DNA of 62,971 nucleotides, filler included, from Reclinomonas americana ATCC 50394 (Eukaryota): NCBI GenBank assembly GCA_048213135.1. It is 6 parts of 4 records of this genome, joined end to end, with 100 filler letters (N's around TTAATTAATTAA, not from the genome) between each part and the next. Parts side by side here need not be neighbours in the genome. Positions count along the whole stretch, not along the records: positions 1 to 16,253 come from PS015395.1; positions 16,354 to 27,229 come from PS015396.1; 4 more parts are not named here. One strand, given 5' to 3'. Below the pieces are notes generated by a model. It did not search any database. It saw only the letters and a list, made by a program, of their open reading frames with translations, and was not told the origin of the DNA. This document shows positions 2,743 through 32,268 of this stretch, one piece after another. Each line of letters begins with the position of its first letter. Position 1 is the first letter of the stretch. Position numbers and translations under genes: made by a program.

Positions 2743-5504
2743 ATGAGGTGTGCTGTGATGTTGTCAGGTGGCATTCTCTCTCCCACTCTCACTCGCGCTT
2801 CTGCTTTTGCTTCTTTGGCGGCAGTGCTCCTCGGATGAAAGCATGTGATATCGCAATGGAAGGCGATGTGAAGGCACTGCGCGAGTTGGTGGCGCGTGAG
2901 GGTGCACGGACTTTGCTGCAGAGAGAGGAGATGAGTGCTGGTGGTTGCTCGGCATTTTACTATGCCGCTCTCAGAGGCCATCTCTCGGTGTTGGAGTATT
3001 TGTGGGAGGAGAGTGGTGTCGGGCCACAACTCGCACACATGGTCAACGACCTTGGCTACACGCCTCTGATGGGGGCTGCCACCTATGGGCATCTGCAAGT
3101 GGTGGAGTGGTTGCTTGCCGATGAGCGACGATGTCCGCCAGAGATGGCGCGGGTGGTCAGCAATGACCGTGCGGAGTATCCGCAGTCCACGGTACTGCAT
3201 TATGCTGCAATGAGAGGACACGAAGCCGTGGTGCGACTGCTCGCCACTCGCTTCCCCGACCTCATTCCCGTGGTCAACAATGCGGGCAAGACGGCGGCTC
3301 AGTGGGCACGCGACGCGAGAAAGCAAGAAGTGGCCGACTTGCTTGACCACCTCGCTGTGCAGCCAGCACGACCACACCAACAACAACAACAGCAGGCGCG
3401 ATCCCCGCCTCCTGCAGGTATGACCTCTATTATGTCTGTTGGCATGATGTGTTCGTGCTCACGCCACCACCTGTGATTTGTCCTTGTGTGTGTCATTCCT
3501 GGCGAATATGATGCAGTGCCAGCACGCCAGGTGAGACGGAGAGTGCCACTCTAGATCTCTGCTTCTTGTTGCTCGCGAAACTCACTTCTCATATCCGTTC
3601 CGTGTCTCCCTCGCACTCTTGTAAATTGCAGTTGGCTGTTGATGATCCCACCGTCGCACGCCAGCTCGCCGACAAGGACGCACTCCTTGCGCAACTCCAG
3701 CGCGATCTGGCGGCAGCACAGCAGGAGCGAGATCAACAGCAGCGAGAGTGGAATCGACAGCGACGTGAGCACGAGGACGTCGTCGCCCAGTTGCAGCAAG
3801 ATAAGGCCCAGGAACAGCACAAGGTCGGCCAATTGCAGCAGGCGGTCGGTGAATGGCAGCGAGCTCATGCCAGCGAGCAGCAGAAGAATGCCCAATTGCA
3901 GCAAACTGTCATGCAGTGGCAGCAAGCTCATGGCCAACTGCAGGCTCAGCTGACTGCGGCTCTGCGCGACAAGGAGGACCTCGCGACGCAGCTGCAAGAA
4001 CGCAATCAACTCATCTCTCAGCTGCGACAGGATCTCCTCCTCACCCAAGGTCTGTCTCTTCCCCTCTGAGTGTCCAACGTCTTTCATACTCACCCATCTC
4101 TCTCTTCCCCTTCCCACCCTCCACAGTCGACACCGCCGTGCAGCGCTTCGAGTGGCCCGAGATCGTGCACGCCACCAATTCATTCTCACCCAGCCTCAAG
4201 GTCGGCGAGGGCGGCCAGGGTGCCGTCTTCATCTCCATCCTCCGCGAGATGCACGTGGCCATCAAGGTGCTCGACCCCAATGCACCGTGGACGATGGAGT
4301 CGTTTGAGAGTGAGGTGTGTGTATCTCCCTCTCTTCTGTTTCTTCTTTCTCCTCATCCTTCTTCCCCATCTCACAGGTGGCCACCCTCGGACGCCTACGT
4401 GACCGTCGCATTGTGCCTCTTGTCGGCTACTCGGTGGGCGACGACAAGGCACGCTGTCTCGTGTACAAGGCCCTGCAGTGCGTTCCATCTCTCTCCCTTT
4501 CTCCCCCTTTCTCCATAATCGTCTCACTGTGAAGCACACAGAGTCCCCAACCTGGAGGATCTGTTGCTGCTGCCACGCGCCGGTCGTGCACCACTCTCTC
4601 TCATACAGCGCGTGCAGATTGGTCTCGGACTGGCCGAGGCTGTGGTGTTCTTGCACAAGGTTTGTGCGATGTGGATACCATCCTCCACTCCCATTCACCG
4701 TCTCTGTCCCGAAGCACTCTGTCCTGCACTCTCTTCCTCTTTTCTCCTCGTCACTCTTTTGCTGTTCTTGTCTCTCCCACCCTCAGGTGTTCTCTCTCTG
4801 AATAGCCCTCGCTATCTGTTCGTTCCCGTTTTCTCTCCTCTCTCCTTGCCGCTCTCGTGCTGTTCGTGTCTCTTTAGTTCTCTCTCACTTTCTCCTTTTC
4901 TCGCTGCTGTGTTTTATGCTTTCTTCCTCATCTCACTCACCTCTCCTCGCAGAACAATGTGGTGCACCGCGACATCAAGCCCTCCAATGTTCTCCTCGAT
5001 CACCGTTTCGAGCCGTGTCTCGGTGACTTTGGCATTGCGCGGTCGATTGCAGATGGCAAGGTGTGTTTCCATTCAGTCCTTCTCTCTCTCTCTCTCTCTC
5101 TCTCGCTCTCTCTCTTCCACACTCCCTCACATTCTCTCATCTCGCAGACAACTACCGCCGCCGGCACTCTAGACTACATGGACCCACTGGCGTTGCGCGT
5201 GAGGACGCCGGATCCTGAACACGACGTGTACAGCATGGGTATCGTGCTGGTGCAGCTGGTCACTGGCAAGCCCGTGGCAACAGTGGTGGATTGGTCTGTG
5301 AGATGGGATCGTTCTGCTGCCTCGTTGCGCCCCATGGAGCTGGTGGATGGAGGAGCAGGGTGGACGCCGCGCATCGCCGAACCCATGTTTGAACTCGGCA
5401 TGCGCTGTATGAGCGTGCGACGCGATCGGCCAACCTCGCAGGAGGTGCTTGATGTGATGCGTGCGCTGCGTGAGGCTTGTGGGCAGTTCACGCTGGAACT
5501 GTGA
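2743..5504 (+). CDS. Ankyrin-repeat / coiled-coil / Pelle-IRAK(RLK)-like Ser/Thr kinase, copy 1
   Basis: Nine exons (2743-2747, 2825-3417, 3517-3530, 3632-4049, 4127-4314, 4377-~4478, ~4542-4659, 4953-5060, ~5148-5504) join in frame. Ankyrin motifs: GYTPLMGAATYGHLQVVEWLL and STVLHYAAMRGHEAVVRLL. A Gln-rich coiled coil follows. Kinase motifs: FEWPEIVHATNSFSPSLKVGEGGQGAVF, VAIK, HRDIKPSNVLLD, DFG, GTLDYMDP, DVYSMGIVL, RRDRP. Confidence 0.9.
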
Positions 5505-5818
5505 GATAAATACAGGCTGTGTCTGATTGTTCTTATGTGGGTTGTTGCAGCTTCATTGCGCGAGTCCACGAGTGTGACAGTGAGAACAGAGTGCTTGCGA
5601 GAACAGAATCCATGTTTTGCGGACGACGTGTGGATGAATTATCCTCAGGGATGTCGCGTAAAACCCACTTCCTCCTCCACAACAGCCTGGTACACATCAA
5701 GGCACTCACACTCCCCCACTCGCACCACACACTGCGCTTCCAATTCTCCGACGACTTCTCACAGAAACCCGGCACCTCTTGTCAGATCCACCACTTCCCG
5801 TCACTCACTCTCCTTCTC

Positions 5819-8800
5819 ATGAGCGCGGCCTCCGTCATCGCGCACCTCTTTGAGGAAACACACAAGCCGCCTCTCACCCTCACACTCTCCTCCACACGCT
5901 CACAAGAAGACCTCCTGAGCGAGTTACCTGCACACACACACATCTCCTCTCTGACTTTTTGTCACACTCTCTCTCTCACACACACGCACGCCCTCTCACA
6001 GCATCTGCCAGCACTGCGCCGACGCCTCCCCCCTCACTCTGACATTTGATGGAGCTCTCTTGGTGACTGACAATGAGCAAGCACAACAGGTCCGATCACT
6101 GAACGCTCTATTCCTTCTCTTCCCCCTCCTCACTCACTCTGTTCTCCCACACACAGGCCCTCTCGACCTACCCCCGCCTCTACGTCTTTTCCCGCGCGTT
6201 TCTCGAGCAAAAGAAACAGCATATCGCCAGCGACGTGGCGGACACGGCCATTGTAGTACCGCACACCAATCCACAAGTCGCGCGCGACGAGTTTCGCGAG
6301 TGGAGCAGTGTGGCCAGTGTGCGACTGGAGGCCGCCCGTGCGCTGATTGCCTTCGCGGTGCGTCGGAGCTCGGCAATTGAGGAAACGGTCGATTGTGGCA
6401 AGCAAATGGTCCGGTGGGCGAGTGAAGGACTGGCGGGAGGTCTGCGCTGGTTGACGGGCTTGTCGTTGACGCCGACGACACTGCATCAGGCGCAGGGGCA
6501 GTTGGCCGGGCAGAGGCAGTCGCTGGAGGATTTGGTGGCGCATTTGGAGGCGCAGATGGTGTCGGTGCAGGTGCGGGAGGCGTTGGCGGCGGTGGTGGAG
6601 GAGTGCTCGGTGCAGTTGGAGGTGGCGGGGGTGGAGGGTGTGGAGTTTGAGGCGAAGGGTGAGCAGGGGGAGGAGGGGGAGAAGGGGGAGAAGGGGGAAG
6701 GGATGAGGGAAATGGGGGGAAAAGTGGGAGAGCAGACAGTGAGGGGAGAGCTTATCGAGGAACTGCTGATCGAAGAGGCAGAGAGGGCGAGAGCAGAGTG
6801 AAGAAGCAGAGCACAGCGAGGGGTGGAGAACAGAGCAGATAGGGCGTCTTTCCTCGCTTGCATTCTCCGCGCTGTCTCTTCTGTTGCTTTGCCGGCTTGA
6901 GTGTCCTCTTTTGCCTGCGTTTCATTCGCTCCGCGCGTCTCCCTTGGCTCTCTCTGGAGCGAGGGAGGAGAGCAAAGCGAGGCGAGGGGATATAAGAGCA
7001 GAGCGAAGAACAGCTGGTCGACGAGGTTGGGCGAGGAGGGAATGCAGGAGAGGGAGGAAGGAGAACAGAGCGAAGGGTGGAGAGCAGAGCTCTTGCAATC
7101 CTCCCCCTTGCTCTCATTCATCAAACCTTGCCCCTCTCTTTTCTTCTTTTGCTTCCCTGGCTTGCTTGTCCTCTTTTGCCACATGCTTCCCTTGACTCTC
7201 TCTCTCTCTGAAGCGCAGAGTTGGGAGAGCCAGATCGAGATGGAAGAGCCAGAGCGATAGGAGAGAGTGGAGGAAGGGCGGAGAACAGAGCAGTTGGAGC
7301 ACTTTCTTCACTTGCTATCCTCTCGTTCTTCCCTTGCGCTTTCTCCTCATTTGCTTCCCTGGTTTGTATGTTCTCTTTTACCTGCGTCTCATTCGCTCCG
7401 TGCACTTCTTCATCTCATTTAAAGCGAGAGTGGGAGAGCAGAGCGAGGGGTGGAGTTCAGGGAGAAGAGAAGAGCAGACAGGGCACCTATCTTCTCATAC
7501 TATCCTCCGCGCTTTCTCTTGTTTTTTGCTTTTTCCCCTGCGTCTCATGCACTCCGTGCGCTTCTCCTTCTCATTTTCTGGAGCTAGGGAGGCAGCGTAG
7601 AAGAGAGAGAGAGAGAGCAAGAGCGAGGATGGAGCTGGATTCTCACCCCTCTTGATCAGACACACTAGCGGAACGCCGGGCGCAGCTGATGGAGAGCGCG
7701 TTTCATCGATTCTCACACACGTTGCCGCGCGTCGAGCAGCACATGGCGGAGGCCGTGTGCTGGTTGGGTGAGTTGCAGGCTGCCGACTGCCAGATCGCCG
7801 AGTTGTGCAAGCTGGCCAGTGCGGCGAAGCATTTCGCCGCTCGGCTGGTCGACGCGCGTTGCGTGATGAGGAGGAGGCGAGCTTGTGCACTCGCCATGTC
7901 ACTCATTTTTTCGAATTGCAGGCGTGTGCGAGCTGCTGCCGGGGATGGTGGAGCAGAAGCGTCGGTATGAGGAGGCGTGCGAGCGGATGGCGGAGACGTG
8001 CTTGGACCCGGTGCTCGACCTGGCGGACCAGGAGGTTGCGCGGAGGCGGGTGTTTGCGGAGGAGTTTCCGCTGGGGCCGTTCTTGTGTCCCGAGATGGCC
8101 AAGCCGGTGGCCACGTTCGAGGTAGGCAAAAAAAAAGGGAAAGGGGCGAGAGGGAAGGGCAAGAGGGAAAGGGGTGAGAGTAAACGGGAAGAGAGGGCGA
8201 GGGGAGAGACTGAAAGGGGTGAGAAGAATGAAAGAAGAGGGAACGGGATGAGAGGAGAGAGGAAGGGGAATGGGTGAGAGGGAAGGAAAAGAAAAGGAAA
8301 GGGTGGGAACGGGAGGAGAGGAGTGAATGAAGAGGGAACGGGATGACAGCGAAAGAGGAAGGGACAGGGATACGAAGAAAGGAATGGGGCGGATGGAGGC
8401 AGTGAACGGAAGGGGCATGGTGGGGGAAAGAAAGGAGGAGAGAGAAATGAGCAGAGAGGGACAGGAGCGAGACAAAGGGGAGGAGAAACAGGAGTGAAGT
8501 GGGCACGAGGAGAAATAAATGGAGAAGAGTGCGTCTGTGTGAGAGAGAGAGAACATGCTGGATGAGACAACCATTTTTTCAATATGTGCTGATTTGCTTC
8601 TTTTGCGCAGCTTCGGCGTGTGGGTGCGTACTGGTGACTATGGCAGTGTATGGTGGCAGCAGGCACTTAAATACTTTGTGTGCAGGTGTCAAGTGGTTCG
8701 GCATTGCTGCGCCGAAGGATGTGCGGGAGGTGAGGACAAGAGAGGGAAGGGAAAGGGGAAAATGGACAGCGATGAGAAAGAGAGTGAATGAGAGACAAAG

Positions 8801-11800
8801 AGACAAGGGACGAGGTGATGAAGGGGGAGAGAGAAGACCTGAGACGGGAAACATGACCCAAAGGGGGACGAGCCGATCACATGGGAGCCTCTCGGGAACC
8901 TCAGCTGACTCGTTTCGCCTCATTTGCCTCATTCTCCTCTCGTTCTCCTCTCGTTTTCACTCGTCTCCTCTCGCTTAATCTTGTCTCCTCTCGGAGGACA
9001 AGGGTTGAGGAGTGAGGGTTGAGAGGCGAGGGTTGAGGGCTGAAAAATAGAGGGTAGGAGGACAAGGGTTGAGAGGCGAGGGTCGAGGGTTGAAGAATTG
9101 AGGGTTGGAGGACAAGGGTTGAGGAGTGAGGGTTGAGGGTTGAAGAATTGAGGGTTTAGTGAGAGTCGAGGGTTGAAGGACGAGGGGTGAGGGTTGAAAA
9201 AACGAAGGGTTGGAGGACAAGGGTTGAGAGGCGAGGGTCGAGGGTTGAAAAACGGAGGGTTGACGGTCGAGGGTTGGAGGGCAAGGGTTGAGGGGCGAGG
9301 GCTGAGGGTTGAAAAATGCAGGGTTGGAGACAAGGGTTGAGAGGCGAGGGTTAAGGGCCGAAGAATTGAGGGTTGAGGAGCGAGTGTCGAGGAGCGAGGG
9401 TTGAGGGTTGAAAATGGAGGGTTGGAGACAAGGGTTGATCGAGCGTTGAAATATGCGGGGGTTTCTCTCGATTTCTATCGCTTCCTCTCGTTTCCTCTCG
9501 TTTGCACTTGTCCCCTTCCATTTTCTCTCGTCTCCTCCTGTCTCGCCTCCTCTCTTATTTTCCTTCGTCTCTTCTCGTCTCACTCATCTCTTCCCTGCAG
9601 CCGCTGAAGCAAGATGCGTGTACCTTTGTGGACGGCCTGCCCGACCGAGTGCCTGTGCTGCGCCAACGGTGCGTGTGGATCTTCTCTCGCTTTGTAGGAT
9701 TGCTGTAGACTCACTTCTCCACCGCAGCGTGAATGAGCTGGCGGAGGCGTTGATGCACACACGAGATGAAGCGGCCATGGTTTGCTTACTTCGCTGTGCC
9801 TACGCCTGTGCAAAGAACTCACCCTCGCCCTCTCCTGCCAGCTGAAACGCGAAAGCGAGCAGCTGCACCGCGAGTTGCGACCCTTCTTCCCCCCACGCTG
9901 TAATTCCTCCAACCTCACCCTTGCGCACGCAGCAACGACGAGTTGGCACGCGCGGCGGACCAGTTGCGCCTCACACAAGAGGCGATGATGCCTCGCATTG
10001 AGGCCCGTCAGCTGGACGAGCAGAATCTCAGAATTGTGCGTGACTTTGCTTGCGAGGGACAGGATTCGCTGATAACTGACTTGCGCAACAGGCGGAGCGC
10101 AAAAATGTGATTCTCGGCGACAAGTGCGTGGATGCTTGCTATTCATGGAATTACTGGTGATCTCACTCTGTGGTGAATTGTTACAGGGTCGAACTTCTTG
10201 AGCGACAGGTTCGCGGAGTTCGCTGGCGATCAGTCTCCTCGTTGTCACTCACCTTCCAGTGCAGATTCAAGTCACTGCTGAGCAGCATCAGAAGCGGTGA
10301 GTGTTGTGGTCGTGGTTGGATTTTCAGCCATCTGTTCTCACTTCTCCTGCATACAGTGTTTTCGATTTGACCTCAGAACTTGCCACGCTTCGCTCCGATA
10401 ATGCGCAACTCAAGCAGGTGGGTGCAAGGGAAAGAGGGAAGGGAGTGGAGGGCAGCAGAGAGAGGTAAATGGGACAGAAGCGAAACGGGGAGGAGAAGTG
10501 GGACGGAGAAGGGGTGGAGATGGACAAGTGTTCTTCTTCCGTGTTTCCTGCCTCTCTCCAGCTTCCATTCACGGCTCTCTTGCACTGTGGCCTTACAGTC
10601 CGCTTGCACTTTCTCCCCCTCTGAACACCGCAATGTTGTTCCATCGCATGGCTGATGCGAACCGATAATTTGAGGACACAATTGTCTCCTATTCTGCCCT
10701 CTTCTTTCACTGCATCTCTCCAGGCTTCCTTCCCCTGCTCCCAATTCTCTCTCTGCCGTCTGTCTCCCTCGCTGACCGTACATCCCAATTACGCAGCGTG
10801 CCAATGCCATCGAAGTCGCCCATGCATCGTTGCGTTTGCCAGTGTGTGGCAGCTATCTTTGTTCGGCCTCTGACAGTCTTGTATTTCGTGCAGATCCGCC
10901 GCCAACGAGCGCCATTTGGCAGTGGTGCGTGTCTCGCCCTCTTGCTGCTCTCATCTTGCACTCATTCTGCTTCTCCCGTGCAGCGCGTGCGCGATCTCGA
11001 AGAGCAGTTGCGAACATCTGCTGTGCCTGCTGGTTGATAGTCGGTGATTAACCCTCTCCCCTCACGCAGGCTGGAGCCGTTGCGCGAGGAGAGCACTCGT
11101 CGTGCACGCGACTTCATTGAGCTGTCGAGCCGCGCGACCGAGAACCAGCGACTGGCGGAGTCACAGGCGCGCGAGCTGACGGAGCTGCGAGCTGACTTGA
11201 CTGAGAAGAATCGACTGGTGGACGAGGTGCGTCTCCATCGTGGTCGTTGATGCTGCGTTGGTGTTACTGACAGTCATTTCCATTCAGCTGCATGCCAGCA
11301 ATCAGCTTCTTTCGTTGCGTTTTTGATGCACTGGCTTTTGGAGTAACTGTGTTGCTCATTGTTTTTCACAGTGCCGAATCTGTGAGTGTGGGGGTCGCGG
11401 ACGTTTCTCGTGATCATTACTCACCATCCTTCATCACAGGGGGTGAAGCAAGCGCTGGAGGAAGAGTTGCGAATGCTCCTTGCGAGTTGAAGTAGATGAG
11501 GTGTTCACCATCTCCTCGTGCAGAATCTACAGACTTCGCGGTGAGATCCGCTCGCTGCGGAGGGCCAGCACGACTGTCGCCGCAGATGCAGGCGTTGTTG
11601 ATGTCGGGTGCGTATGTCGGGACTGTGAGGGTGAAGGGCATATGTGCTGATTGCTTCACCGCAGAGAAATCGCCAACTTGCGCGCCCAGCTGGCCGAGGT
11701 TACTCGCGAGAAGACGAGACTCAGGTGCGTGGTGTTTGCATAAAGGTGTCTCGGATTGTGCTGACTCTCTTCTACCGTCTCGCAGTGAGGAGGCTGCACG

Positions 11801-14800
11801 GGTGAGATCTGCGCATTGTTGGAGTTCTGTCGATGTGCTTCTCACTATTCCTGTTGCGCAGCTCCGCCAAGCGGCAACCGACAGCAGCGCAGTGAGTAGA
11901 GCACACTACAACCGTCACACTCCCTGCTGCTGACCAATTCTCTTTCTGTCTACTGTCTTCGCTCTTCTCCTCTCTCTCGCTCTTCTCCTCCCTCTCTCGC
12001 TCTTCTCCTCCCTCTCTCGCTCTTCTCCTCCGTCTCTCGCACTTCTCCTCCGTCCTCTGTCTCTCGTTCTTCTCCTCCCTCTCTGTGCACCTTTCTCTCT
12101 TCTCCTCCGTCTCTCGCTCTTCTCTTCCGTCTCTCGCTCTTCTCTTCCGTCTCTCGCTCTTCTCCTTGCCCACTCGCTCTTCTCCTCTGTCTCTCGCTCT
12201 TCTCTTCCGTCTATCGCTCTTTTCCTTCCTTTTTCCGCTCTTCTCCTCCGTCTCTCTTCTTATCCGTCTCTCGCTCTTGTCCTCCGACTCTCGCTCTTCT
12301 CCTCCCTCTCTCGCTTTGCTCCACCCTCTCTCGCTTTGCTCCTCCCTCTCTCTCTCTCTTCTTTTCCCTCTCTCGCTCTCCTCTTCCGTCTCTAGTTCTT
12401 GTCCTCCATCTCTCGCTCTTCTCCTACATCTCTTGCTATTCTCCTCCGTCTCTCGGTCTTCTCCTCCGTCTCTTGCTCTTCTCCTCCGTCTCTTGCTCTT
12501 CTCCGTCTCTCTCTCTCTTCTCTTCCGTCTCTTGCTCTTCTCCTCTATCTCTTGCTCTTCTCCTCTGTCTCTCTCTTGTCCTCCGTCTCTCGCTCTTCTC
12601 CTCCGTCTCTTGCTCTTCTCCTCCATCTCTCGCTCTCCTCTTCCGTCTCTTGCTCTCTTGCTCTTCTCCTCCGTCTCTCGCTCTTCTCCTCCGTCTCTTG
12701 CTCTTCTCCTCCGTCTCTCGCTCTTCTCCTCCGTCTCTCGCTCTTCTCCTCCCTCTCTCGCTCTTCTCCTCTGTCTCTCGCTCTTCTCCTCCGTCTCTCG
12801 CTCTCCTCTTCCGTCTCTTGCTCTTCTCCCCCGTCTCTTGCTCTTCTCTTCCGTCTCTTGCTCTTCTCTTCCGTCTCTCTCTTCTCCTCCGTCTCTCGCT
12901 CTTCTCCGTCTCTCTCTCTCTCTCTGTGCACCTCCCTCTCTCGCTCTTCTACTCCGTCTCTCTCTCTTCTCCTCCCTCTCTCGCTGTTCTCCTCCCCCTC
13001 TCGCTCTTCTCTTCTCACTCTCTCCCTCTTGGTATCTGCAGCAACGCGACTCTCGGCAGCGGCGCGAGATGGAAGCCGCGGAGGAGCTGCGTGCACTGCG
13101 CCAGCGATTCGACGAGTATCAAGCCGAGGTGAGTAATATGTGTGTCAGCCACGCGCCAACAACAGTGCTGACTCTTTCACGCAGGTGAGCGAAACGATGG
13201 CCTCGCGCACCAACGCCGACGTGGCTGCAATTGTTCGCATCCACCAAGAACAGGTGCGGCCGCAAGTGTTGCCCTCTTGCAGGAAGACGCTCACATCTTT
13301 GGTGCACAGTTTGAGGAGGAGCTGCGTCTCGTGAAGGAAGCCAATGACGAGCGCATGCAGCGCAAGGAGGCGGAGGTGAGGGCAACGTGCAAAGGTGATT
13401 TCTGCACTTGTGCTCATTGCTGCTGCAGTTTGGCGCGTGGAAAGACACGTATCGCAACCAGTTGGCCGAGGCCATGGCATCGTTGCAAGAGGCGCAGCAG
13501 GAGCTGGCGGCTCGGCAGCGGTCGAGTGGGGCAGCGGTGAGTGAATGGCGAAGGGTGGCCTAAGGGGGGTGAAGGGAAGGCAGAAGCGACAGAAAGTGTG
13601 TCGAATTCTGGCGGTATTTTGCAGCAGTGATTGTGGAGGAGTGTGGGCCGGCGATTCTTTCGTCTTGTTTTGCCTTCGTCGACTGAGCATCTCCTTGCGT
13701 GCAGGAGGCCGTGATGCAGCAAAAGCTGGAGGCGGAGGAGGCCAAGGAGCTGTTGACTCGCGAGGTCAGTTTTTCGAAGATTGAGTGCGCAACGAGGCGA
13801 GTGTCTCACTCTCCTCGCAGCTCGCCGACCTGCGACGCATGTACGGCGAGGCGGAGGACCGATATGCTCGGTTGTCGATTGAGGTGAGAGTTGACACTTG
13901 GTTTGCTTCTCGTGCCTCGCTGACAAATTTGTGCAGTTGCAGCAGGCTCGTGCGGCAGTGAGCGAGGCCGGTCGCAGTCAGCCAGCTGCTGAGAAGTCAC
14001 AGGTGCGTCTTTATCAGTATTTTCTTGAGCATGCGTGCGTGGGCGTTTGTGTGGGCGAGTGTGTGGTGTTTATATGTCTGGTTTGCCGTTTGTGTTTGTG
14101 GTGTCTTTGTTGAGGCTTTGCCTGCTGTTCACTCCAGTTCTCTCCTGCTCTCTGAGTTCTCTCCTGTTCTCTCTTGTTCTCTCTTGTTCTTTCCTGTTCT
14201 TTCCTGTTCTTTCCTGTTCTCTCTTGTTCTCCTGTTCTCTCCTGTTCTCTCCTATTCTCTGAGTTCTCTCCTGTTCTCTCTTGTTCTCTCCTGTTCACTT
14301 CTGTTCTCTCCTGTTCTCTCCTGTTCTCTCCTGTTCTCTCCTGGTCTCTCTATAATCGCTCCTCTTCTCTCTGTTCTTTCTTGTTCTCTGTTGTTCTTTG
14401 AGCGTGACACTTAAAGGCGCCCTTACCAATTGCGTGAAAGCAGGCTGGTGCAGACGTTGGCGGTGCACGTTGCGTTTCCCTGGCCTCACCTTCCCCCTCC
14501 CCCTCCAATTCTCATTTTTCCTGCTTCCCCTTGTACTCTCTCTCTCCCCGCAGTGGCCGAGCGCGCGCGCTACGCCGAGGACGCACTGGCTCGCGTGTTG
14601 TACACGTCGGGGCTGGTGTCGTCGAGCCAGCGCGTGCCGCAGGAGGGATTGGATGCGAGTTGGCGGGCGCGCATCGAGCGGTGCCTGTGCATTGTGCGGG
14701 ATGCGGTGGACATGCAGCAGACGTTGATATTGGTGGGGACAGAGTTGGGCGTGTTGAGGGTGGTGGAGGGTGGGAGGGTGGTGGATGCGTCGGCCACGTT

Positions 14801-16017
14801 GGAGCAGGTGAGGGGGAAGGAGAAGGGGAGTAACTGGGGAAGGGGGAGAGAAGGGGAAAGAAGAGAAAAGGGAAGAGAAGGGCAAGGGAGTAACTGGGGA
14901 AGGGGAGGGGAGGGGGGAGAGACGAGAAGCAAGAGTGGACGTGCGAGAAAGAAACGAAGAGGAGGTGGTGGCAGAGGAAACGGAAGACAAGCACATAGTG
15001 TGGAGAGAGAAAGTGGGGGAGGAGAAGATGGCGCTGAGTGCGTGAAAGAGTTTTGCCAGGCGTCAAGGGTTGAAGAGCAAGGGTCAAGGGATGAAAACAG
15101 TCAAGGAGGATTCGATGAACGAGAAACAAGGAGGGAGGAGAGAACTGAGAAACCAGGAGAGACAATAGAGAACGTTAGAGACCAGGAGAGAACAGGAGAG
15201 AACAGGAGAGAACATAGAGAGGAAACAGATAACAGAGAGACCAGGAGAGAACAATAGAGAACAAGAGAGAACAAGAGATGAGTGAGGAGCGAAAGCGGAG
15301 TGGGGACAATAAGGATGGAATCAGAAGGACCGCAATGGGGAGAGAGAGAGAAAAGTGAGATCCTTGGTTGCTTCTACTGTCCGGCAACGAGAAAAGAAAC
15401 GAGATGAAGTGAGAGAGAATGAGTGCAACAAGATTTCGCAACACAGATGGTGTACCCACCATTCCCCCCCCTCCAGTGCCGTCAATCGGTGATCACTCGC
15501 GAGGAACTCGTGCGAATCCAGTCAACCATGCCCGTTCTCTTCTCCGAGTTGCGTCACCCCGCCGTCGCCTTTTGTCTCTCTCCTCCTCCCTCACTCCACC
15601 GCCGCAGCATTGAGCACGTGTGCAAGGAGCGCATCCAGGCCTCGGTGCTGTTGACGCGCTGCACTTCCAATCCGCAGTACTACGAGGTCATTCATCGCGG
15701 ACACGTGCGCGTTCTGGTAAAGTCCGACGAGGCGGATCCGCGCAGCAATCAGCGCGTCAAGTGCGTACCTCTCTGCTCGCCGTCCCTCTTCTTCTCCCCT
15801 CACTCTGCTGCGCCTGCAGGCAAATCCGTAACGATGATTCGGTGCTATTGGCGACCATTGTCGGTCTTGTGCCGGCCACGGTCGCGGCGGTGAGCACAAG
15901 AGAGACAGAAGAGGAGTCCTTGCTCGTACTCACCCCTTGCCGCAGAACGAACGGCTACCCGACGGACTGCGGGTGGGCATGCCGTACTTTACGGCGTTGG
16001 TGGATGGTGGGGTGTGA
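5819..16017 (+). CDS. ATG11: ATG11/FIP200 (RB1CC1)-like autophagy scaffold, many small exons
   Basis: The N-terminal ubiquitin-like segment ends in YPRLYVFSRAFL. The mid-region EVARRRVFAEEF...CPEMAKPVATF resembles the Atg11/Atg17-like region. A long microexon-encoded coiled coil follows. The C-terminal exons give VLLTRCTSNPQYYEV...VLLATIVGLVPATVAANERLPDGLRVGMPYFTALVDGGV*, matching the Atg11/FIP200 claw pattern. Internal exon boundaries are not all resolved. Confidence 0.72.
6780..7640. repeat. Degenerate intronic tandem repeat with alternating purine/pyrimidine blocks
   Basis: GAGCAGAGCGAGGG...GGAGAACAGAGCAG...TTGCTTCCCTGG...CCTGCGTCTCATTCGCTCCG recurs several times. Confidence 0.7.
8994..9438 (+). 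repeat. Telomere-like degenerate (TTGAGGG)n minisatellite in ATG11 intron
   Basis: Dense GAGGGTT / AAGGGTTGAG heptamer-based array. Confidence 0.85.
11950..13025. repeat. Intronic ~20-nt pyrimidine minisatellite (CTCTTCTCCTCCGTCTCTCG)n
   Basis: Direct inspection; explains the long spurious low-complexity ORFs on both strands. Confidence 0.9.
14135..14400 (+). repeat. 10-nt minisatellite (CTCCTGTTCT)n; reverse-complement copy at ~15130-15280
   Basis: CTGTTCTCTCCTGTTCTCTCCTGGTCTCT at ~14321 is the reverse complement of AGAGACCAGGAGAGAACAGGAGAGAACAG at ~15177. Confidence 0.85.
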
Positions 16018-16049
16018 GGGAGAAAGTAAAGAAACGCGTCATTACACTC

Positions 16050-16166
16050 TCAGTCATCAGACTCATCCTCCTCGCTGTTGACAATCGAGGCCTGCCAGTG
16101 CGCCCAGGCACGGGCGTTTTGTTGTACAGAGGACGACAGGACTTCGGCCTCTTCCTCGGCGACGGA
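16050..16166 (-). CDS. Terminal exon of an unidentified gene cut by the scaffold end
   Basis: Pyrimidine tract and CAG acceptor, then SVAEEEAEVLSSSVQQNARAWAHWQASIVNSEEDESDD*; the stop lies ~32 bp from the ATG11 stop. Confidence 0.55.
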   Translation of the reverse strand, partial: SVAEEEAEVLSSSVQQNARAWAHWQASIVNSEEDESDD

Positions 16167-16253
16167 CTGCGGAGGAGGGGAAGAGGGGGGGGAAGAGGGG
16201 GGGGAATGGGGGAGAAGGGGGAGGACAGGGGGAAGGGGGGGGAGGGGGATGAG

Positions 16254-16353
16254 NNNNNNNNNNNNNNNNNNNNNNNNNNNNNNNNNNNNNNNNNNNNTTA
16301 ATTAATTAANNNNNNNNNNNNNNNNNNNNNNNNNNNNNNNNNNNNNNNNNNNN
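16254..16353. other. Artificial scaffold-joining spacer (N44-TTAATTAATTAA-N44)
   Basis: Six-frame-stop linker embedded in exactly 100 nt. Confidence 0.97.
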
Positions 16354-16667
16354 CGGATACACACGAACACTCAGGATGAGAGTGAAAGAAGACAGCATTC
16401 AGTGCTTCTTCTCGATGGCACTGCACTCTGGTTGTATGCAGGCGTGCGTACAGGTGTGTGCCAAGAGAGAGAAAGAGAGAGAGAGAAAAATTCAGCCCTT
16501 CTCATGTTCTACACCTAAGAGCGAGCGAGATGGTGAGCGAACGACAAGCCCAGATGATTGGAGAGCAACCAGTCGAGTCGGAGAGAGCGAGAGAGGGAGA
16601 GGCAGAATGCTTCAGCGCCAAAGAAGTGTGTGGACGATGAAGCCGTTCCCCTCCACCTTCTCCTCAT

Positions 16668-19600
16668 TCACCGCACCTTGAGCAATCGCTGGAACTCCGT
16701 CAGCGACATTCGCCGCACGTTGCTGCGCTGCAGCGCCGACACCAGAGGCGGTAGTTGACAGCTCTCCTTTAGTTGATCGGAGATGTGTTGTGCCGCCAGC
16801 ATCGACGCGTGCAGTGACTCCTTGTCGCCGCGTGTTCTTCGGAAGCGTGATGACTGGGCAAGCGAAAACATGAGTGAGAGGCACGACAAAGGGGCAACGA
16901 AGGGAGATGGACGGAAATTGATTAATCAACAGATGACTCGAGGAGAGAGAGATATTGTAGATAATGACCGATCGACACTGTGAGAGACTGTGCACGCACG
17001 GAAAGGGAGAACAAAGAGACGATCAGAGTGACAAAAATATGATGAATCACGCACGGAATAGGAGCACAGAGACACAGGCACCAGAGTGAGCAAAGAAGAG
17101 ACAATACAAATGAAGCACACATGGAAAGGGAGCACACAGCACAGGACAATCAGAGTAAGCAAAGAAGAGACAATGCATAAAATGACGCACACACGGAAAG
17201 GGAGCACACGATGCAGGCACGCATGAACGATCAGAGTGAGCAAAGAAGAGACAATAAAATGAATCACACACGGAAAATGAGCACACGACACAGGTACGCA
17301 TGAACAATCAGAGTGAGCAAAGAAGAGACGAACATGAATGAAGCACACACGAAAAAAGAGCAGACCAGGCACGCATGAACAATAAGAGCGAGAAAAGAAG
17401 AGACAATAAAATGAATCTCACACGGTAATGGAGCACACGATGCAGGCACGCACGAACGATTGGAGAGAGCACAGAAGAGACAAAACATAAAATGCACACA
17501 TGGAAAGGGAGCACACAACACAGGACAATCAGAGTGAGCAAAGAAGAGACAATGCATAAAATGAAGCACACACGGAAAAAGAGCTCAGAGACACAGGCAC
17601 CAGAGTGAGAAGAAACAACAAAATGAAGCACACACAGAAAGGGAGCACACGATGCAGGTACACATGTAAGATCAGAGTAAGACAAGAAGTGAAGCACACG
17701 CAGAAAAGGAGCACACGATGCAGGACAATCAGAGTGAGAAAAGAAGTGACAACAATCATAAAATGTAGCACACACAGAAAGGAACACACGATGCAGGCAC
17801 GCATGAGCGATCAGAGTGAGCAAAGAAGAGACAAACCCATAAAAATGAAGCACACGCGGAAAAGGTGCACACACCACAGCTAAGCATGAATAATCAGAGT
17901 GAGAAAGTAGTGAGAAAAAGAAAGCCCTGTTCCTCTCATCCCCACCCCCTTTCCCTCCAGAATCACGCACCACGCCGTCACCTTCCGCCACCTCCTCCTC
18001 CCCACCATCCGCCGCCTCGTCCGGCTCGCGGAACGCCACAGCTCGGACCGCCGGCGTATCACGTGGCGGTGAGATGCGCACGGCGGGAATCAGCAGCGCG
18101 GGTGGTGCGGGCGAGGCCGTGACAAACGCAGGCACGCCGGTTTCGAAATCCGCCAGACCGACGGCGGTGGGATAGCGATCAAACGAGTAGTCCGACAGGG
18201 AGTTGACGGGCGAGTGGCGACCTGCCGCGAAGGACAAGGGATCAGCAAGGCACCGTCACCACTTTCCCGCACGCAAGCTCACCGTTTCCCACTGTCGATA
18301 CGGGGGAGTGGCGACCTGCGACATAGGATAGGGATTAGTAAGGCATCATCACCTCCTTCTCAAACGACCTCACCGTTCCCCACTGCCGACACGGGGGAGT
18401 GGCGACCTGCGACACAATAAGACAAGGATCAGCACGGCCCCTTCCCCTCACCCCGCCCCTTACGTGAGCTCACCGCTTCCCACTGCAGAGACGGGCGAGT
18501 GGCGACCTGCGCGACAAAAAAAGACAAGGGATCAGAGCAATGCACTGTCACCGCCCTTCCCCTCAAAGCTCACCATTCCCCATCGCCGAGAGGGGCGGCG
18601 ACACGGAGCGCAGGTACCGCGAGATGGGCAGATCCTCGACGTCCGGCTCGGGCGACGGCTGCAGGCGACCGCTGGTGCGCCGCAACGACTGCAGCAGTCC
18701 GCGCGTCTCGGCCATTTCACGATCGAGCGTCTGCATGCGCTGGCGCACGAGCATCTTGGCGGGCGAGTCGGTGGCGGCCACATTGGAGAACGCCAGCGCG
18801 AGCATCACTTGCGCCTGCTCCATCTCCTGCAGCGCCTCCTCCAGCCGCAGCTCCATGGCCGGCGACGACGGCAACACGGGGACCGCCGCCATCAGTGTGC
18901 TAGAGGGGGAGCTGTGCGGGATGACGGGGGGCGGCAGCGGGGAGGGCGATGAGAGCGCGCGGGCCAGCACGCTGGTGTAGGGCGATGATGAGTCGGTGGT
19001 GGTGGTGATGCGACGAGGGGGCGAGGGGGAGAGGCGGGAGTCGCTTGCCGGTGATCCACCGGAGGAGGAGGGGGGTGAGGAGGAGAGTGGGGAGGAAGAG
19101 GAGAAGGGTCCGGTGGCGTAGGTGGCCATGAGGCGTTCGACGTGGCTGGCGAGGGCGGGGGGAGGGGTGAAGGTGGCGGGGAGGGGGGCGGGAGGGGGTG
19201 GAGGGGTGGATTCGGTAGGTCTTCGGGTGGAGGTGGTGGTGGTGGAGGAGGGCTGTGAAGGGGGAGAAGGGGAGGGTGAGGGGAATGAAGGGGGAGGTGA
19301 GAGGGACAGAGGGGAAAGGCAGGGGAAAGGGAAANNNNNNNNNNNNNNNNNNNNNNNNNNNNNNNNNNNNNNNNNNNNNNNNNNNNNNNNNNNNNNNNNN
19401 NNNNNNNNNNNNNNNNNNNNNNNNNNNNNNNNNNNNNNNNNNNNNNNNNNNNNNNNNNNNNNNNNNNNNNNNNNNNNNNNNNNNNNNNNNNNNNNNNNNN
19501 NNNNNNNNNNNNNNNNNNNNNNNNNNNNNNNNNNNNNNNNNNNNNNNNNNNNNNNNNNNNNNNNNNNNNNNNNNNNNNNNNNNNNNNNNNNNNNNNNNNN

Positions 19601-20597
19601 NNNNNNNNNNNNNNNNNNNNNNNNNNNNNNNNNNNNNNNNNNNNNNNNNNNNNNNNNNNNNNNNNNNNNNNNNNNNNNNNNNNNNNNNNNNNNNNNNNNN
19701 NNNNNNNNNNNNNNNNNNNNNNNNNNNNNNNNNNNNNNNNNNNNNNNNNNNNNNNNNNNNNNNNNNNNNNNNNNNNNNNNNNNNNNNNNNNNNNNNNNNN
19801 NNNNNNNNNNNNNNNNNNNNNNNNNNNNNNNNNNNNNNNNNNNNNNNNNNNNNNNNNNNNNNNNNNNNNNNNNNNNNNNNNNNNNNNNNNNNNNNNNNNN
19901 NNNNNNNNNNNNNNNNNNNNNNNNNNNNNNNNNNNNNNNNNNNNNNNNNNNNNNNNNNNNNNNNNNNNNNNNNNNNNNNNNNNNNNNNNNNNNNNNNNNN
20001 NNNNNNNNNNNNNNNNNNNNNNNNNNNNNNNNNNNNNNNNNNNNNNNNNNNNNNNNNNNNNNNNNNNNNNNNNNNNNNNNNNNNNNNNNNNNNNNNNNNN
20101 NNNNNNNNNNNNNNNNNNNNNNNNNNNNNNNNNNNNNNNNNNNNNNNNNNNNNNNNNNNNNNNNNNNNNNNNNNNNNNNNNNNNNNNNNNNNNNNNNNNN
20201 NNNNNNNNNNNNNNNNNNNNNNNNNNNNNNNNNNNNNNNNNNNNCCACACACACACACCTCCTTCCTCTTCTGCGGACTCAACGCCGACCGCAACCACTT
20301 GGGCACCGCAATCCTCTCCTCTCCATCCTCACCACCACCCTCCCCATCCTCCTCGCCTCCTCCTCCACCACTGCCATTCTCAACTCCGCGACCACTGTTG
20401 GTCAGCAAGCGCGCGCGAAAGAGCTCGTGGTGATGCAGAGAGGGAACAGTGGATGAAGGTGGAGGTGGGGGAGAGGGGTTGGTGGCGGTGCGAGGTGACC
20501 GTTGTGGGGAGTGGCGAGGGGAGGAGCGGCGAGGTTGGGCGCGTTGAGTGGTGGTGGTGAGTGTGGAGGAGAAGTAGCGAGGTGAGCGGCTGCTCAT
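16668..20597 (-). CDS. Uncharacterised Ser/Pro-rich, largely disordered protein with short coiled coil and RHSP microexon array (spans an N gap)
   Basis: First exon MSSRSPRYFSS...LSPQKRKE|gt. A large exon contains MELRLEEALQEMEQAQV...MQTLDREMAETRGLLQSL. Three 33-nt exons and the exon GRHSPVNSLSDYSFDRY follow. The probable last exon is ...RRMSLTEFQRLLKVR*. Confidence 0.55.
16975..17920. repeat. Intronic ~60-90 bp degenerate tandem repeat
   Basis: CAGAGTGAGCAAAGAAGAGACAAT...AAATGAAGCACACACGGAAAGGGAGCACACGATGCAGG repeated roughly ten or more times. Confidence 0.9.
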
Positions 20598-20819
20598 GGT
20601 GGTTGTTGAGTCGGTGGTGACAGTGACAGTGGGACCGGGGACTTGTGGCAGTCGCGTGTTGGTTCAGGTTGAGAGCAGAAGTGGCGAGTAGAGTGGCTGC
20701 TTTAGGCTTCAGAGTGCTGGATCTGGCTAGCTTTGCGACCATGTCTTGTGAAGTCGAAGCAACTTCGCGATCGCTGCGGCTTTCGCTGCGATATTTTCGC
20801 GGTGGCCATAAGAGGGGAA

Positions 20820-21025
20820 GGGTTGGTGCGAGGTGACCGTTGCGGGGAGTGGCGAGGGGAGGAGCGGCGAGGTTGGGCGCGTTGAGTGGTGGAAAGTGTG
20901 GAGGAGAAGTAGCGAGGTGAGCGGCTGCTCATGGTGGTCGTCGTTGAGTGGTGACAGTGGTGTGGGACCGGGACTTGTGGCAGTCGCGTGTTGGTTCTCG
21001 TTGGGTGTAGAAGTGGCGAGTAGAG
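20820..21025 (-). repeat. Local duplicate of the 5' end of the neighbouring gene (copy of ~20476-20693)
   Basis: Second MSSRSPRYFSSTL...QRAQPRRSSPRHSPQRSPRT ORF (20702-20932) with shared upstream sequence, diverging to a stop after the shared part. Confidence 0.85.
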
Positions 21026-21128
21026 GAAGACAAGCTGCTGTCAAGGGTCCGCAACGCGATCATGAAGAAACATGCAAAGCGATCGATTCAGCTTATGCAC
21101 AGGGAACTTGTAAACTTCTGTTGTATCG

Positions 21129-24100
21129 CTACCAAAGTTCCAGTGTGAACTGCCCACACGCCTCACGCAGTGCACGCATCGCATCGAGCACCTCATGCGA
21201 GGTTGGCCGATCACGTCGCAAGCTTATGCAGCGCATGCCGAGCTCGAACATGGGTTCGGCGATGCGCGGTGTCCACTCTGCTCCACGATCGACAAGCTCC
21301 ATGGGACGCAGCGAGGCTGGCGAGTCGTCCCACTCCACGGACCACTCCACTACTGTGGCCTCAGACTTGCCAGTCACCAGCTGCACCAGTACCGCACCCA
21401 TGCTGTACACGTCGTGCTTGGGGTGAGGACGGCGCACACGCATCGCCAGTGGGTCCATGTAATCCAGCGTGCCGGCGGCGGTCGTCGTCTGTGAAACGGG
21501 AGAAGGTGAGACAGCGTAGAAGAGAGAGGAGAACGGAGCCAACAAACCTTGCCATCTGCAATCGACCGCGCAATGCCAAAGTCACCGAGACATGGCTCGA
21601 AGCGGTGATCAAGCAGCACATTGGAGGGCTTGATGTCGCGGTGTACAACATTATTCTGTGAGCGGAGATAAGTGAGGTGAGGCACGATGTATGAAACACG
21701 ACAGCAAGGAGAGAATAAAGCCGAATGGAGAGGAGAGTACACGAGAAGCAGCGGAGACATCAACAGCGAAGACTGACGAGGAGAAGAGAGAGAGAGAGAG
21801 AGCACACAGACAGCAAGGGTGCCTCTACAGGGAGAGGAAACGAAGCGAGGCGTCCACATCGGTCAGACCTTGTGCAAGAACGCCACGGCCTCGGCCAATC
21901 CGAGACCAATCTGCACACGCTGCACGACCGTGAGTGGTGCATGGCCGACGCGTGGCAGCAGAAGCAGATCTTCCAAGTTGGGAACTCTGTGCGCTTTCAC
22001 AGTGAGATGATGATTGAGAAAGAGAAGAGGAGAGAGTGACGAGTAACCCACTGCAGGGCCTTGTACACGAGACAGCGTGCCTTGTCGTCGCCCACTGAGT
22101 AACCGATGAGGGGCACGATGCGACGGTCGCGTAGGCGTCCGAGAGTGGCCACCTGCGAGATGGAGAAGAAGGATGAGGAGAGAGAGAAGAAACTGGAGAG
22201 GGGAGAGACATACAGACCTCACTCTCAAACGACTCCATCGTCCACGGTGCCTCGGGGTCGAGCACCTTGATGGCCACGTGCATCTCGCGTAACAAAGTGA
22301 TGAACACGGCACCCTGGCCACCCTCGCCGACCTTGAGGCGTGGCGAGAAGGAGTCGGTGGCGTGCACGATCTCGGGCCACTCGAAGCGCTGCACGGCGGT
22401 GTCGACTGTGGAGGGCGTGATGGGAAGAGAGAGAGATGGGTGAGAATGAAGGAGACAGAAATACTGGGAAAATAAGGAAGAAGAAAATGAGGTCATGAGA
22501 CGGACCTTGGGTGAGGAGGAGGTCCTGTCGCAACTGGGAGACGAGTTGATTGCTTTCGTGCAGCTGCGCGGCGAGATCGTCCTTGTCACGCAGGGCCTCA
22601 GTCAGCTGAGCGGTGATTTGATCTCGCTCGGCTTTCAGTTGGGAAATCTCTTGCTCATCCTCAGCATGAGCTCGCTGCCAGTCAGCGTTGGCTCGCTGCA
22701 AATGCGCACTTCGCTGTTGCTCTTCAGACAGACCACGTCGTAGCTCTGCGTTCGCAAGCTGCAGCTCCGTCCGCTGCCGGTCGAACTCTCTCTTCTGCTG
22801 CTCTCGCTCCTGCTGTGACGCCACGAGATCGCGCTGAAGTTGGATGACGAGCGCTTCTCTCTCGACGAGCTGGCGTGCCAATGCAGGATCATCACCAACC
22901 ACCTGCACAGGAGGCCGATGTGACACGAGAGAGCAAGGTGTGCATAGAGTGAACTCAATGATCGGTACTGACGCGGAGACTGTCGATCTCAGTCTCACCT
23001 GGCGTGCTGGCGCTAAAAGTATCGCGGAGCAATACACAACGACACAAAACACGGTTGAGTGAGAGCAGGAATTAAATGGATCACACAAGTTAACGGACAG
23101 GGAGACCACACCTGCTGGACGAAGAGGCTTTTCCATCAGAGGCTGTTGTCGGGGTGGCGATGGTTCCAAAGCGAGGCGATCGAGCAACTCGGCCACCTGA
23201 ACATGTCCTCTTCCACGTGCCCACTGCGCCGCGGTCTTGCCCTTCTTGTTGACGACGGGAATAAGGTCGGGATAGCGAGTGGCGAGGAGTCGCACAATCG
23301 CTTCGTGGCCATTCTTGGCAGAGACATGCAGTGCAGTGGACTGTGGAAACATGTCACGGTCATCGGTAACCGCCCGCACCGTCTGTGGCGGACATCGTCG
23401 CTTGTCGGCAAGCAACCACTGCACCACTTGCAGATGGCCAAAGCAAGCGGCCCCAATCAACGGTGTTTGCCCATAGTCGTTGGCCAACTGCGCGAGTTGC
23501 GGTCCAATGCCAGTCTCCTCCCACAAATACTCCAACACGGAGAGACGGCCCTGATGAGCGCCACATACAAATGCAGAGCGGCCGTACTTATCCATCTCCT
23601 CTCTCTTCAGCAGCGTCTGCGCACCCTCGCGGGTCACTAATTCGCGCAGCGCCACCACATCTCCTTCCGTTGCCATCTCCCATGCTTTCTTTTGACGGCG
23701 CTGGCTTGCAGCACTGCAACAAAGAAGTGCGGGTGAGGTTTTAGAGGCCAAAATAATTAACTGTGAGTCGATGTGAAACTCGCACACAATCCCACCTGTC
23801 GATCATTCGGCGTGCTGCTGCGAGTGCCTGTGGTCGAGCCACACAACGTGAGTGCCAAACAGACACGTGCCAACTCCGGTCAACAGGTACAACTAAGTCT
23901 CACCCGTTGTACTGCGCATAAGGCACACCAATAGAGCGAAGAATAAATTAGTCAGTTATACAACCACCAGAGCACGAGGAAACAACAAAACTTGATGGCG
24001 GCGGAGTAGGGGGAACAAGAAATCGTTGCGAAGCGAGGCGATCGAGTAAATCGGCCACTTTCCGCTTGTTATTGATACGTGCCAACTGAGCTGCTGTCTT

Positions 24101-24676
24101 GCCCATCTTGTTGACCATGGGAATGAGGTCGGGAAAGCGAGTGGCGAGGAGTCGCACAATGGCTTCGTGGCCTTCCATGGCAGCATAATGCAGTGCAGTG
24201 GACTGCGGGCCATGGGCAAGGTCATTGGAGACCGCCCGCACCATCTCCGGCGGACATCGTCGCTCATCGGCAAGCAACCACTCCACCACTTGCAGTTGCC
24301 CATTGTTGGCAGCAGTCAGCAGTGGCGTAAAGCCAATGTCGTCGACCATGTGTGCGAGTTGTGGCCCTACGCCACTCTCCGCCCACAAATACTCCAACAC
24401 AGAGAGATGGCCTCCAAGAGCGGCACAGTCGAAAACAGAGCAGCCATCCTCATCCATCTCCTCTCTCTTCAGCAGAGTGCGTACGCCCTCACGCGCCACC
24501 AATTTGCGCAGTGCCTTCACATCGCCTTCCTCTGCCATCTCCCATGCCTTCTTCCGTCGGGAGCGAGGAACACTGTGAGCAACGCAAACACATGACGAAT
24601 GACAATCACGACGAATGTGAGCATGCATTCTGACAATAAACCATCCTGAAATAGACACTCTTGCAACACGCCTCAT
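21129..24676 (-). CDS. Ankyrin / coiled-coil / Pelle-IRAK-like kinase, copy 2, with two tandem ankyrin blocks
   Basis: Exons 24676-24672 (GC donor), 24572-23992, 23911-23904 (8 nt), 23827-23796, 23713-23112 and 23012-22999 join in frame, followed by coiled-coil and kinase exons colinear with copy 1; ends ...GQFTLELW*. Confidence 0.85.
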
Positions 24677-27229: not shown

Positions 27230-27329
27230 NNNNNNNNNNNNNNNNNNNNNNNNNNNNNNNNNNNNNNNNNNNNTTAATTAATTAANNNNNNNNNNNNNNN
27301 NNNNNNNNNNNNNNNNNNNNNNNNNNNNN
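27230..27329. other. Artificial scaffold-joining spacer
   Basis: N44-TTAATTAATTAA-N44. Confidence 0.97.
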
Positions 27330-27605
27330 CACACACACACACACACACACACCAGAGAGAGAGAACGGGGAAGGGTTGGCTTCTGTGAGAGAGGGAGTGT
27401 GGGGGAGAAGGTTGTCGAGTTATTCATGTGCATGCTGCTTCCTCTCGTTCTCTGTATTCAAGTGTTTGGGGAGGAGGGAGACAGACACACAGACAGACAG
27501 ACTGACACACTCACGAGGAAAGTGAGTGAGAGAGATGAGCAGTTATTCTGCTTCTTCTCAGTTCTCTTCATGTTGTCGTTTGGAGGGGAGTCGCACACGC
27601 ACACT

Positions 27606-27639
<34 letters not shown>

Positions 27640-32236: not shown

Positions 32237-32268
<32 letters not shown>

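Follow-up and report, generated by a model that had tools for sequence, protein, structure and literature searches.

Ankyrin–coiled coil–kinase paralogues of Reclinomonas americana with residue variation concentrated on the ankyrin binding face

Analysis of a 62,971-nucleotide stretch of DNA from Reclinomonas americana ATCC 50394 (assembly GCA_048213135.1), which comprises six parts of four records joined by filler and is referred to here as the window, revealed three paralogous ankyrin-repeat (ANK) exons, designated A, B and C, two of which (A and B) belong to complete genes for proteins combining ANK repeats, a coiled coil and a protein kinase. Purifying selection acts on the ANK scaffold, on its outer face and loops, and on the kinase. 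At the concave face of the ANK domain, which is built from the hairpin tips and the exposed helix-1 turn, evolution proceeds at the neutral rate or faster, and each copy, an expressed fourth paralogue included, has its own set of residues there. The reading we prefer, to which we assign a probability of about 0.55, is that these genes are sensor-kinase paralogues whose concave ANK face has been diversified to recognise different partners, with a ratio of non-synonymous to synonymous substitution rates (omega) of ~1.3–2 at that face.

Under this reading the window would carry a small cluster of paralogous soluble (cytosolic) sensor-kinase genes, in which the concave ANK face may act as the ligand-recognition surface, with a partner specific to each copy. 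Ligand binding would lead to coiled-coil-mediated oligomerisation and then to trans-activation of the kinase, as in other modules of the IRAK or receptor-like kinase (RLK) type. Binding, oligomerisation and signalling are proposed because of the families involved.

Residue variation on the ANK binding face

A first-pass annotation of this DNA had described three ANK blocks, and both profile and translated searches agree that they are ANK-repeat exons. Each exceeded the Pfam Ank_2 gathering cutoff of 27.3 bits (A, E=5.8e-20, 72.1 bits; B, E=1.6e-16, 61.1 bits; C, E=2.6e-17, 63.6 bits), and tblastn with the three ANK open reading frames (ORFs) returned exactly three ANK blocks in the window. An AlphaFold2 model of the ANK domain computed from the three-sequence alignment (mean predicted local distance difference test score, pLDDT, 87.6; predicted template-modelling score, pTM, 0.83) displays five helix pairs, and its top Foldseek matches were designed ankyrin repeat proteins (DARPins) and other designed ANK proteins, with a probability of 1.00 and target-normalised template-modelling (TM) scores of 0.79–0.87.

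The folded part of the ANK domain is 67–76% identical in protein sequence between copies, and the blocks of A, B and C form a gap-free alignment of 174 codons. All framework motifs quoted in the first-pass annotation were found in all three copies, and all the variable strings that it listed (SAG/DED/DKY, YYAALR/DCAALG/VCGAHQ and the others) are present in the 174-column alignment. According to PMC1261162, DARPin libraries randomise repeat positions 2, 3, 5, 13, 14 and 33. This site set was fixed beforehand from that source and mapped onto the blocks through the TPLH and G15 motifs, giving 26 DARPin columns and 148 others; for repeats 1–4 the mapping was confirmed by aligning a DARPin chain with HMMER, with position 33 after repeat 1 being ambiguous.

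Substitutions proved to be unevenly distributed between the two sets of columns. Variable columns accounted for 19 of the 26 DARPin positions vs 48 of the 148 elsewhere (Fisher p=1.4e-4), and three different residues in A, B and C were found at 13/26 DARPin positions vs 6/148 other columns (p=1.3e-8); 7/26 DARPin positions are invariant in the three copies. The clustering was stable under four definitions of the site set, including omission of position 33, restriction to internal repeats and an alternative position 33. These comparisons confirm that change is concentrated on the canonical ANK binding face. The proposal that the blocks vary mainly at ligand-binding positions thus holds for where variation is concentrated and has to be widened elsewhere, since positions 1, 9 and 10 vary as well, as do positions 15–18 of the last repeat.

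A narrow-range protein search with the ANK exon gave P0050 as the sole match, a 154-residue protein that is 75% identical to the ANK exon. Since P0050 derives from an expressed sequence tag (EST), the ANK family is expressed, and P0050 places its translation start at the M of M-A-x-x-G-D-V. P0050 also served as an out-of-sample test of the clustering: residues absent from A, B and C occur at 11/20 of its DARPin positions vs 9/113 of the others (p=3.9e-6). The same exon was searched against a representative library, where the best 150 of 29,167 matches (E<=1e-3) were inspected; among those 150, 149 were long multi-ANK proteins at 27–45% identity and P0050 was the only specific one. A broader protein search yielded 27 matches, all of them generic ANK proteins at 28–40% identity. 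The last kinase exon gave 975 candidates in a protein search, none at E<=1e-8, and none of the 188 pattern matches in metagenome contigs was confirmed by tblastn.

Selection at the concave face

Codon models were fitted with our own likelihood implementation of the GY94/MG94 type, not PAML or HyPhy, on a three-taxon star tree. Counting by the Nei-Gojobori method gave omega of 0.10–0.15 for the kinase, 0.33–0.40 for the coiled coil and 0.40–0.47 for the whole ANK domain, where the synonymous divergence (dS) is 0.33–0.56. The kinase is therefore under purifying selection; the earlier description of its exons as almost identical between copies was too strong, the identity being 90–92% in protein and 79–82% in DNA.

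In a fixed-sites model with one synonymous rate, omega was 1.6–1.85 at the 26 DARPin sites vs 0.36 elsewhere under six codon-frequency schemes, and omega=1 at these sites was rejected under each of them (p=0.009–0.038). Over all site-set definitions, the estimates ranged from 1.6 to 2.3 and the p values of the same test from 0.0006 to 0.038. Equality of omega between the DARPin sites and the rest was rejected with a likelihood-ratio test (LRT) statistic of 43–49, and in a parametric bootstrap the observed statistic was reached in 3/338 null simulations. Resolved by structural class, omega was 1.85 at the DARPin sites, 1.61 at position 1, 0.48 in the rest of helix 1, 0.32 both on the helix-2 outer face and in the inter-repeat loops, and 0.22 in core and turn positions. 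Because the outer helix face and the loops are constrained, the excess at the binding face does not reflect a general relaxation of the surface, and generic surface relaxation as the sole cause was excluded.

Site models, in which the DARPin positions are not specified, pointed the same way. For the ANK domain M2a was preferred over M1a (LRT 22.3, p=1.4e-5) and assigned 13.8% of codons to a class with omega 6.2; the preference persisted when double and triple nucleotide changes were allowed (LRT 13.8, p=0.001); the same comparison was null in the coiled coil (LRT 0.42) and in the kinase (LRT 0). Sites with a posterior above 0.5 under M2a numbered 22, namely 13 of the 26 DARPin positions and 9 of the 148 others, and most of the latter nine are positions 1, 9 and 10 or, in the last repeat, 15–18.

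Several observations weigh against selection for diversity. The data consist of three DNA sequences and one EST known as protein only. When the 26 sites were given a separate synonymous rate, omega was 1.3–1.5 and no longer differed significantly from 1 (p=0.37–0.53); with a separate rate for the hairpin and helix-1 segments (rV=1.48) it was 1.45 (p=0.19), and when rates were allowed to vary from site to site the M1a/M2a LRT was 2.9–4.0 (p=0.14–0.24). By Nei-Gojobori counting, omega at the 26 sites was 0.96–1.2 relative to their own dS, which is not significant, and 1.28–1.45 relative to the dS of the whole exon (Fisher p=0.21–0.44). In all three pairs dS is higher in the hairpin and helix-1 segments (0.47–0.69) than in helix 2 and the loops (0.25–0.49), so that a shared dS inflates omega. 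The non-synonymous p-distance at the sites (0.33–0.46) is about that of the introns (0.38–0.40; Jukes-Cantor distance 0.54–0.56). Finally, PMC1261162 describes these six positions as varying more than any others in a general set of 15,497 ANK repeats, and the pattern of variation alone is therefore expected in any ANK family. Taken together, the estimates place concave-face omega at about 1.3–2, clearly not below 1; a value above 1 is suggested by them, though three copies do not establish it. The diversifying selection put forward in the first-pass annotation is partly supported, in that change is concentrated on the ANK binding face and omega exceeds 1 significantly under constant rates, but no longer once synonymous or site rates may vary.

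Relaxed constraint only, in which the concave-face residues drift neutrally (omega=1) while the scaffold, outer face and kinase are conserved, is a rival that we rate as a substantial yet less probable explanation. The paralogues would then be functionally redundant, or their differences would lie in other features such as expression or the coiled coil, which is itself divergent (58–63% identity). Such drift would fit the loss of significance once the synonymous rate may differ, the omega of 0.96–1.2 with local dS, the near equality of site and intron divergence, and the low conservation of the six positions in ANK repeats generally. It fits less well with the likelihood-model estimates at the pre-defined sites, all of which exceed 1 (1.3–2.3), or with the preference for M2a over M1a (p=1.4e-5, and p=0.001 with multiple hits); M2a without rate variation is even slightly better, by 1.4 log-likelihood (lnL) units at an equal number of parameters, than M1a with rate variation. 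Uniform drift is also at odds with a face on which 7/26 sites are invariant and yet 13/26 differ in all three copies, a heterogeneity that M2a captures. Moreover, other exposed positions evolve at omega 0.32, and a functionless binding face would be odd in a domain so conserved.

A mosaic history, in which gene conversion or local heterogeneity of mutation rate mimics sites with omega above 1, appears quite unlikely. Either the framework would have been homogenised, lowering its dS, or hairpin and helix-1 patches would have been imported from distant copies, raising both dS and the non-synonymous divergence (dN) there. The 1.4–1.8-fold higher dS of the hairpin and helix-1 segments than of helix 2 and loops in all three pairs is what such a history predicts, and the excess is also seen in codons for identical amino acids (proportion of synonymous differences, pS, 0.36–0.47 vs 0.21–0.36). 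Two rate classes (0.39x and 2.67x) absorb most of the M2a signal, and long stretches are synonymously identical in all three copies, with runs of more than 20 nt identical in A, B and C within 2835–3356 and its counterparts in the other two copies. The low synonymous divergence of the helix-2 and loop framework could reflect gene conversion or a constraint at the DNA or RNA level. However, the rate difference is itself not significant (rV=1.48, p=0.16; r=1.2–1.4, lnL gain <=0.3), and kinase dS (0.39–0.43), intron distances (0.54–0.56) and ANK dS (0.33–0.56) are of one order, which argues against recent wholesale conversion. Conversion of the framework around diverse patches is, in addition, what selection for diversity would itself leave.

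Gene structure, exon C and the kinase

Gene models were derived from a four-way DNA alignment of copies A, B, C and a further copy, D, combined with mapping of splice motifs, and AG/GT was found at all junctions. Both A and B are modelled as complete GT-AG genes, with complete ORFs of 628 and 621 residues, respectively, in which the exon for five ANK repeats is followed by a micro-exon of 14 nt and then by the exons for the coiled coil and the kinase. Copy A lies on the forward strand. Its ANK exon (2835..3417, with the ATG at 2835) encodes five ankyrin repeats and a tail rich in Q and P and ends in a phase-1 GT donor after 3417; it is followed by the micro-exon TGCCAGCACGCCAG (3517..3530, between AG and GTGAGAC), an exon for a coiled coil of ~139 residues with Q/E/R-rich heptads (3632..4049) and the kinase exons E3–E7 (4127–4314, 4377–4477, 4542–4659, 4953–5060 and 5148–5504, the last including the stop), which have AG/GT flanks. 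Copy B occupies 23691–21129 on the reverse strand with the same structure and GT-AG introns, comprising the ANK exon (23112..23691, with the ATG of MATEGDV at 23676–23674), the micro-exon (22999–23012), the coiled-coil exon (22506–22902) and the kinase exons (22218–22405, 22052–22152, 21869–21986, 21548–21655 and 21129–21488).

The exon ends given previously for A and B (3417 and 23112) coincide with these independently derived GT donors, and the starts given for them (2825 and 23713) immediately follow an acceptor-like CAG, which in copy B ends at 23714. A polypyrimidine tract and CAG precede all three ANK exons (at 2825, 23713 and 24572). Since the frame is open, and in the same phase, from this CAG to the ATG in A, B and C, an upstream exon, either 5′ untranslated or coding, may exist.

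The ORF of copy A is complete only when the micro-exon is included, and the micro-exon is needed because the ANK and coiled-coil exons share a frame only with it. A 20-nt stretch around it is kept between A and B although the surrounding introns are 46–53% divergent. DNA identity is 74% between A and B over 1997 nt, introns included, and 83% between A and C over 525 nt; because the similarity extends through the introns, A, B, C and D are taken to be segmental duplicates.

Copy D (25201..27203, reverse strand) consists of the coiled coil and kinase only, the ANK exon being absent; a run of N begins at 27230. The alignment and splice mapping place its coiled-coil exon at 26762–27203 and its kinase exons at 26488–26675, 26323–26423, 26142–26259, 25615–25722 and 25201–25556. 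Compared with A and B, the last of these lacks one nucleotide near 25369, which breaks the frame. Because D otherwise shows an omega of 0.10–0.15, the deletion points to very recent pseudogenisation or an assembly error. ANK block and kinase occur together in A and B; the kinase copies are A, B and D, and none belongs to ANK block C.

Exon C (23968..24553, reverse strand, with the ATG at 24538–24536 and a candidate phase-1 GT donor after 23968) lies between D and B, ~280 nt upstream of the ANK exon of B, and is accompanied by neither a coiled coil nor a kinase of its own. Both exon B and exon C have an ATG of their own behind an acceptor-like site and end at a phase-1 donor, and joining the donor of C to the micro-exon of B produces an open frame of 623 codons. 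Three readings can be given for exon C, namely a remnant, a gene with ANK repeats only, and an exon that would supply gene B with an alternative recognition domain. A tandem fusion of the two ANK exons was rejected, as joining the donor of C to the acceptor of the B ANK exon leads to a stop after 25 codons. When the C–B spacer was compared with intron and upstream sequence of A, B and C, the matches were only 10–21 nt long, and homology was likewise rejected. Downstream of exon C, at 23911–23904, there is a degenerate 8-nt look-alike of the micro-exon, TACAACGG, between CAG and GTGAGAC.

The proteins diverge most in the coiled coil, where the copies also differ by indels, and its exon gives weak matches to Pfam coiled-coil families (FPP, E=1e-3). 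The kinase of copy A matches Pfam Pkinase (PF00069, E=1.1e-17), and the glycine-rich loop GEGGQG and the motifs VAIK, HRDIKPSN and GDFG are intact in A, B and D, from which the kinases of A and B are predicted to be catalytically intact and of the RD type. Among solved structures, the N-lobe exon best matched IRAK1 (E=1.2e-5), LysM-RLK3 and CERK1, and the C-lobe exon IRAK4; for the catalytic-loop exon the bacterial kinase PknB scored slightly best, followed by IRAK4, a lectin RLK, BRI1 and BAK1. The kinase thus appears to be IRAK/Pelle/RLK-like, on matches whose E-values are modest and whose best hits differ by exon. No Pfam match to NACHT or NB-ARC was obtained in the ORFs of these genes or in the 64 other window ORFs scanned (of 200 filtered).

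Comparison with known systems and neighbouring sequence

The ANK domains resemble DARPins in fold (TM 0.79–0.87) and in the positions that carry variation. They differ in being natural paralogues and not members of a library, in having repeats of 37–43 residues with extended, conserved inter-repeat loops, and in their site pattern, since extra sites vary (1, 9, 10 and last-repeat 15–18) and 7/26 library positions are invariant.

A natural parallel is provided by fungal NOD-like receptors (NLRs), for whose ANK repeats positive diversifying selection has been reported (Dyrka et al. 2014, PMC4986451). As described there, the variable or selected sites lie on the concave ANK surface (inner helices and hairpin or loop), and a signalling domain is attached, as in the present genes. 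The fungal repeats, according to the same source, are >85% identical within a protein and polymorphic in number, and the receptors contain NACHT or NB-ARC (PMC4986451). By contrast, the repeats of copy A share only 5–9/26 residues with one another, all copies here have five repeats, the variation lies between paralogues, and the partner domains are a coiled coil and a kinase. The combination of ANK repeats, coiled coil and IRAK-like kinase thus differs from the known fungal and DARPin cases, and a limited literature search found no description of such a family in protists.

The resemblance to IRAK, Pelle and RLK proteins lies in the N-lobe exon, whose best matches (IRAK1, LysM-RLK3 and CERK1) take in a pre-kinase F/WxEIxxATxxFS...GEGGxGxV motif, and in an RD kinase with intact catalytic motifs. 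Unlike those proteins, the gene model contains no death domain, leucine-rich repeat (LRR) or LysM ectodomain, the putative recognition module being a cytosolic ANK domain, and it includes no membrane segment, a dedicated search for a signal peptide or membrane segment not having been part of the analysis. IRAK, Pelle and RLK proteins are signalling kinases common to animal and plant innate immunity.

In animals, RIPK4/ANKK1, ILK and TNNI3K combine an ankyrin repeat domain with a kinase of the tyrosine kinase-like (TKL) group in one polypeptide, and in plants, which also have coiled-coil–kinase resistance proteins, kinase fusions act as intracellular immune receptors. Both groups differ from the present genes (ANK, coiled coil, kinase) in domain order and linker, and neither is known to us to have hypervariable ANK faces that are specific to individual paralogues. 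Hypervariable concave faces mark recognition molecules such as the LRRs of plant NLRs, the variable lymphocyte receptors of lampreys and the ANK, WD and TPR repeats of fungal NLRs.

If the concave face has indeed been diversified for different partners, the pairing of a variable ANK face with an IRAK-like kinase in a protist would represent a compact, independently evolved receptor-kinase design, and its ANK domains would amount to DARPin-like binders of natural origin that come with their own read-out. Neutral variation would instead make these genes an ordinary tandem kinase family whose ANK surface positions vary by default. A much bolder proposal, which we regard as unlikely, is that they represent a germline-diversified intracellular receptor-kinase family resembling innate immunity, with a selected ANK ‘paratope’, a coiled coil and an IRAK/Pelle-type kinase, independent of the LRR/NLR and death-domain systems; the ANK exons of C and B might in addition be alternative, mutually exclusive exons for recognition, spliced to a common coiled-coil and kinase body.

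Elsewhere in the window, whose sequence contains 19 runs of N, many of the assembly gaps appear as paired 44 N. CT/GA and CA/TG microsatellite-like runs crowd the introns and intergenic DNA (e.g. 5077–5143, 32050–32270 and 27282–27842) and give rise to long ORFs, rich in S/L, P or H/T, that are spurious. On the forward strand, ORFs at 52453–53019 and 54843–55253 match TFIID NTD2 (E=2.6e-15) and WD40 (E=1.4e-10), respectively, and are probably exons of a TAF5-like gene split by an assembly gap. A further forward-strand ORF, at 28254–28787, matches the MYCBP-associated protein (MYCBPAP, E=3.5e-7), a family linked to cilia or flagella.

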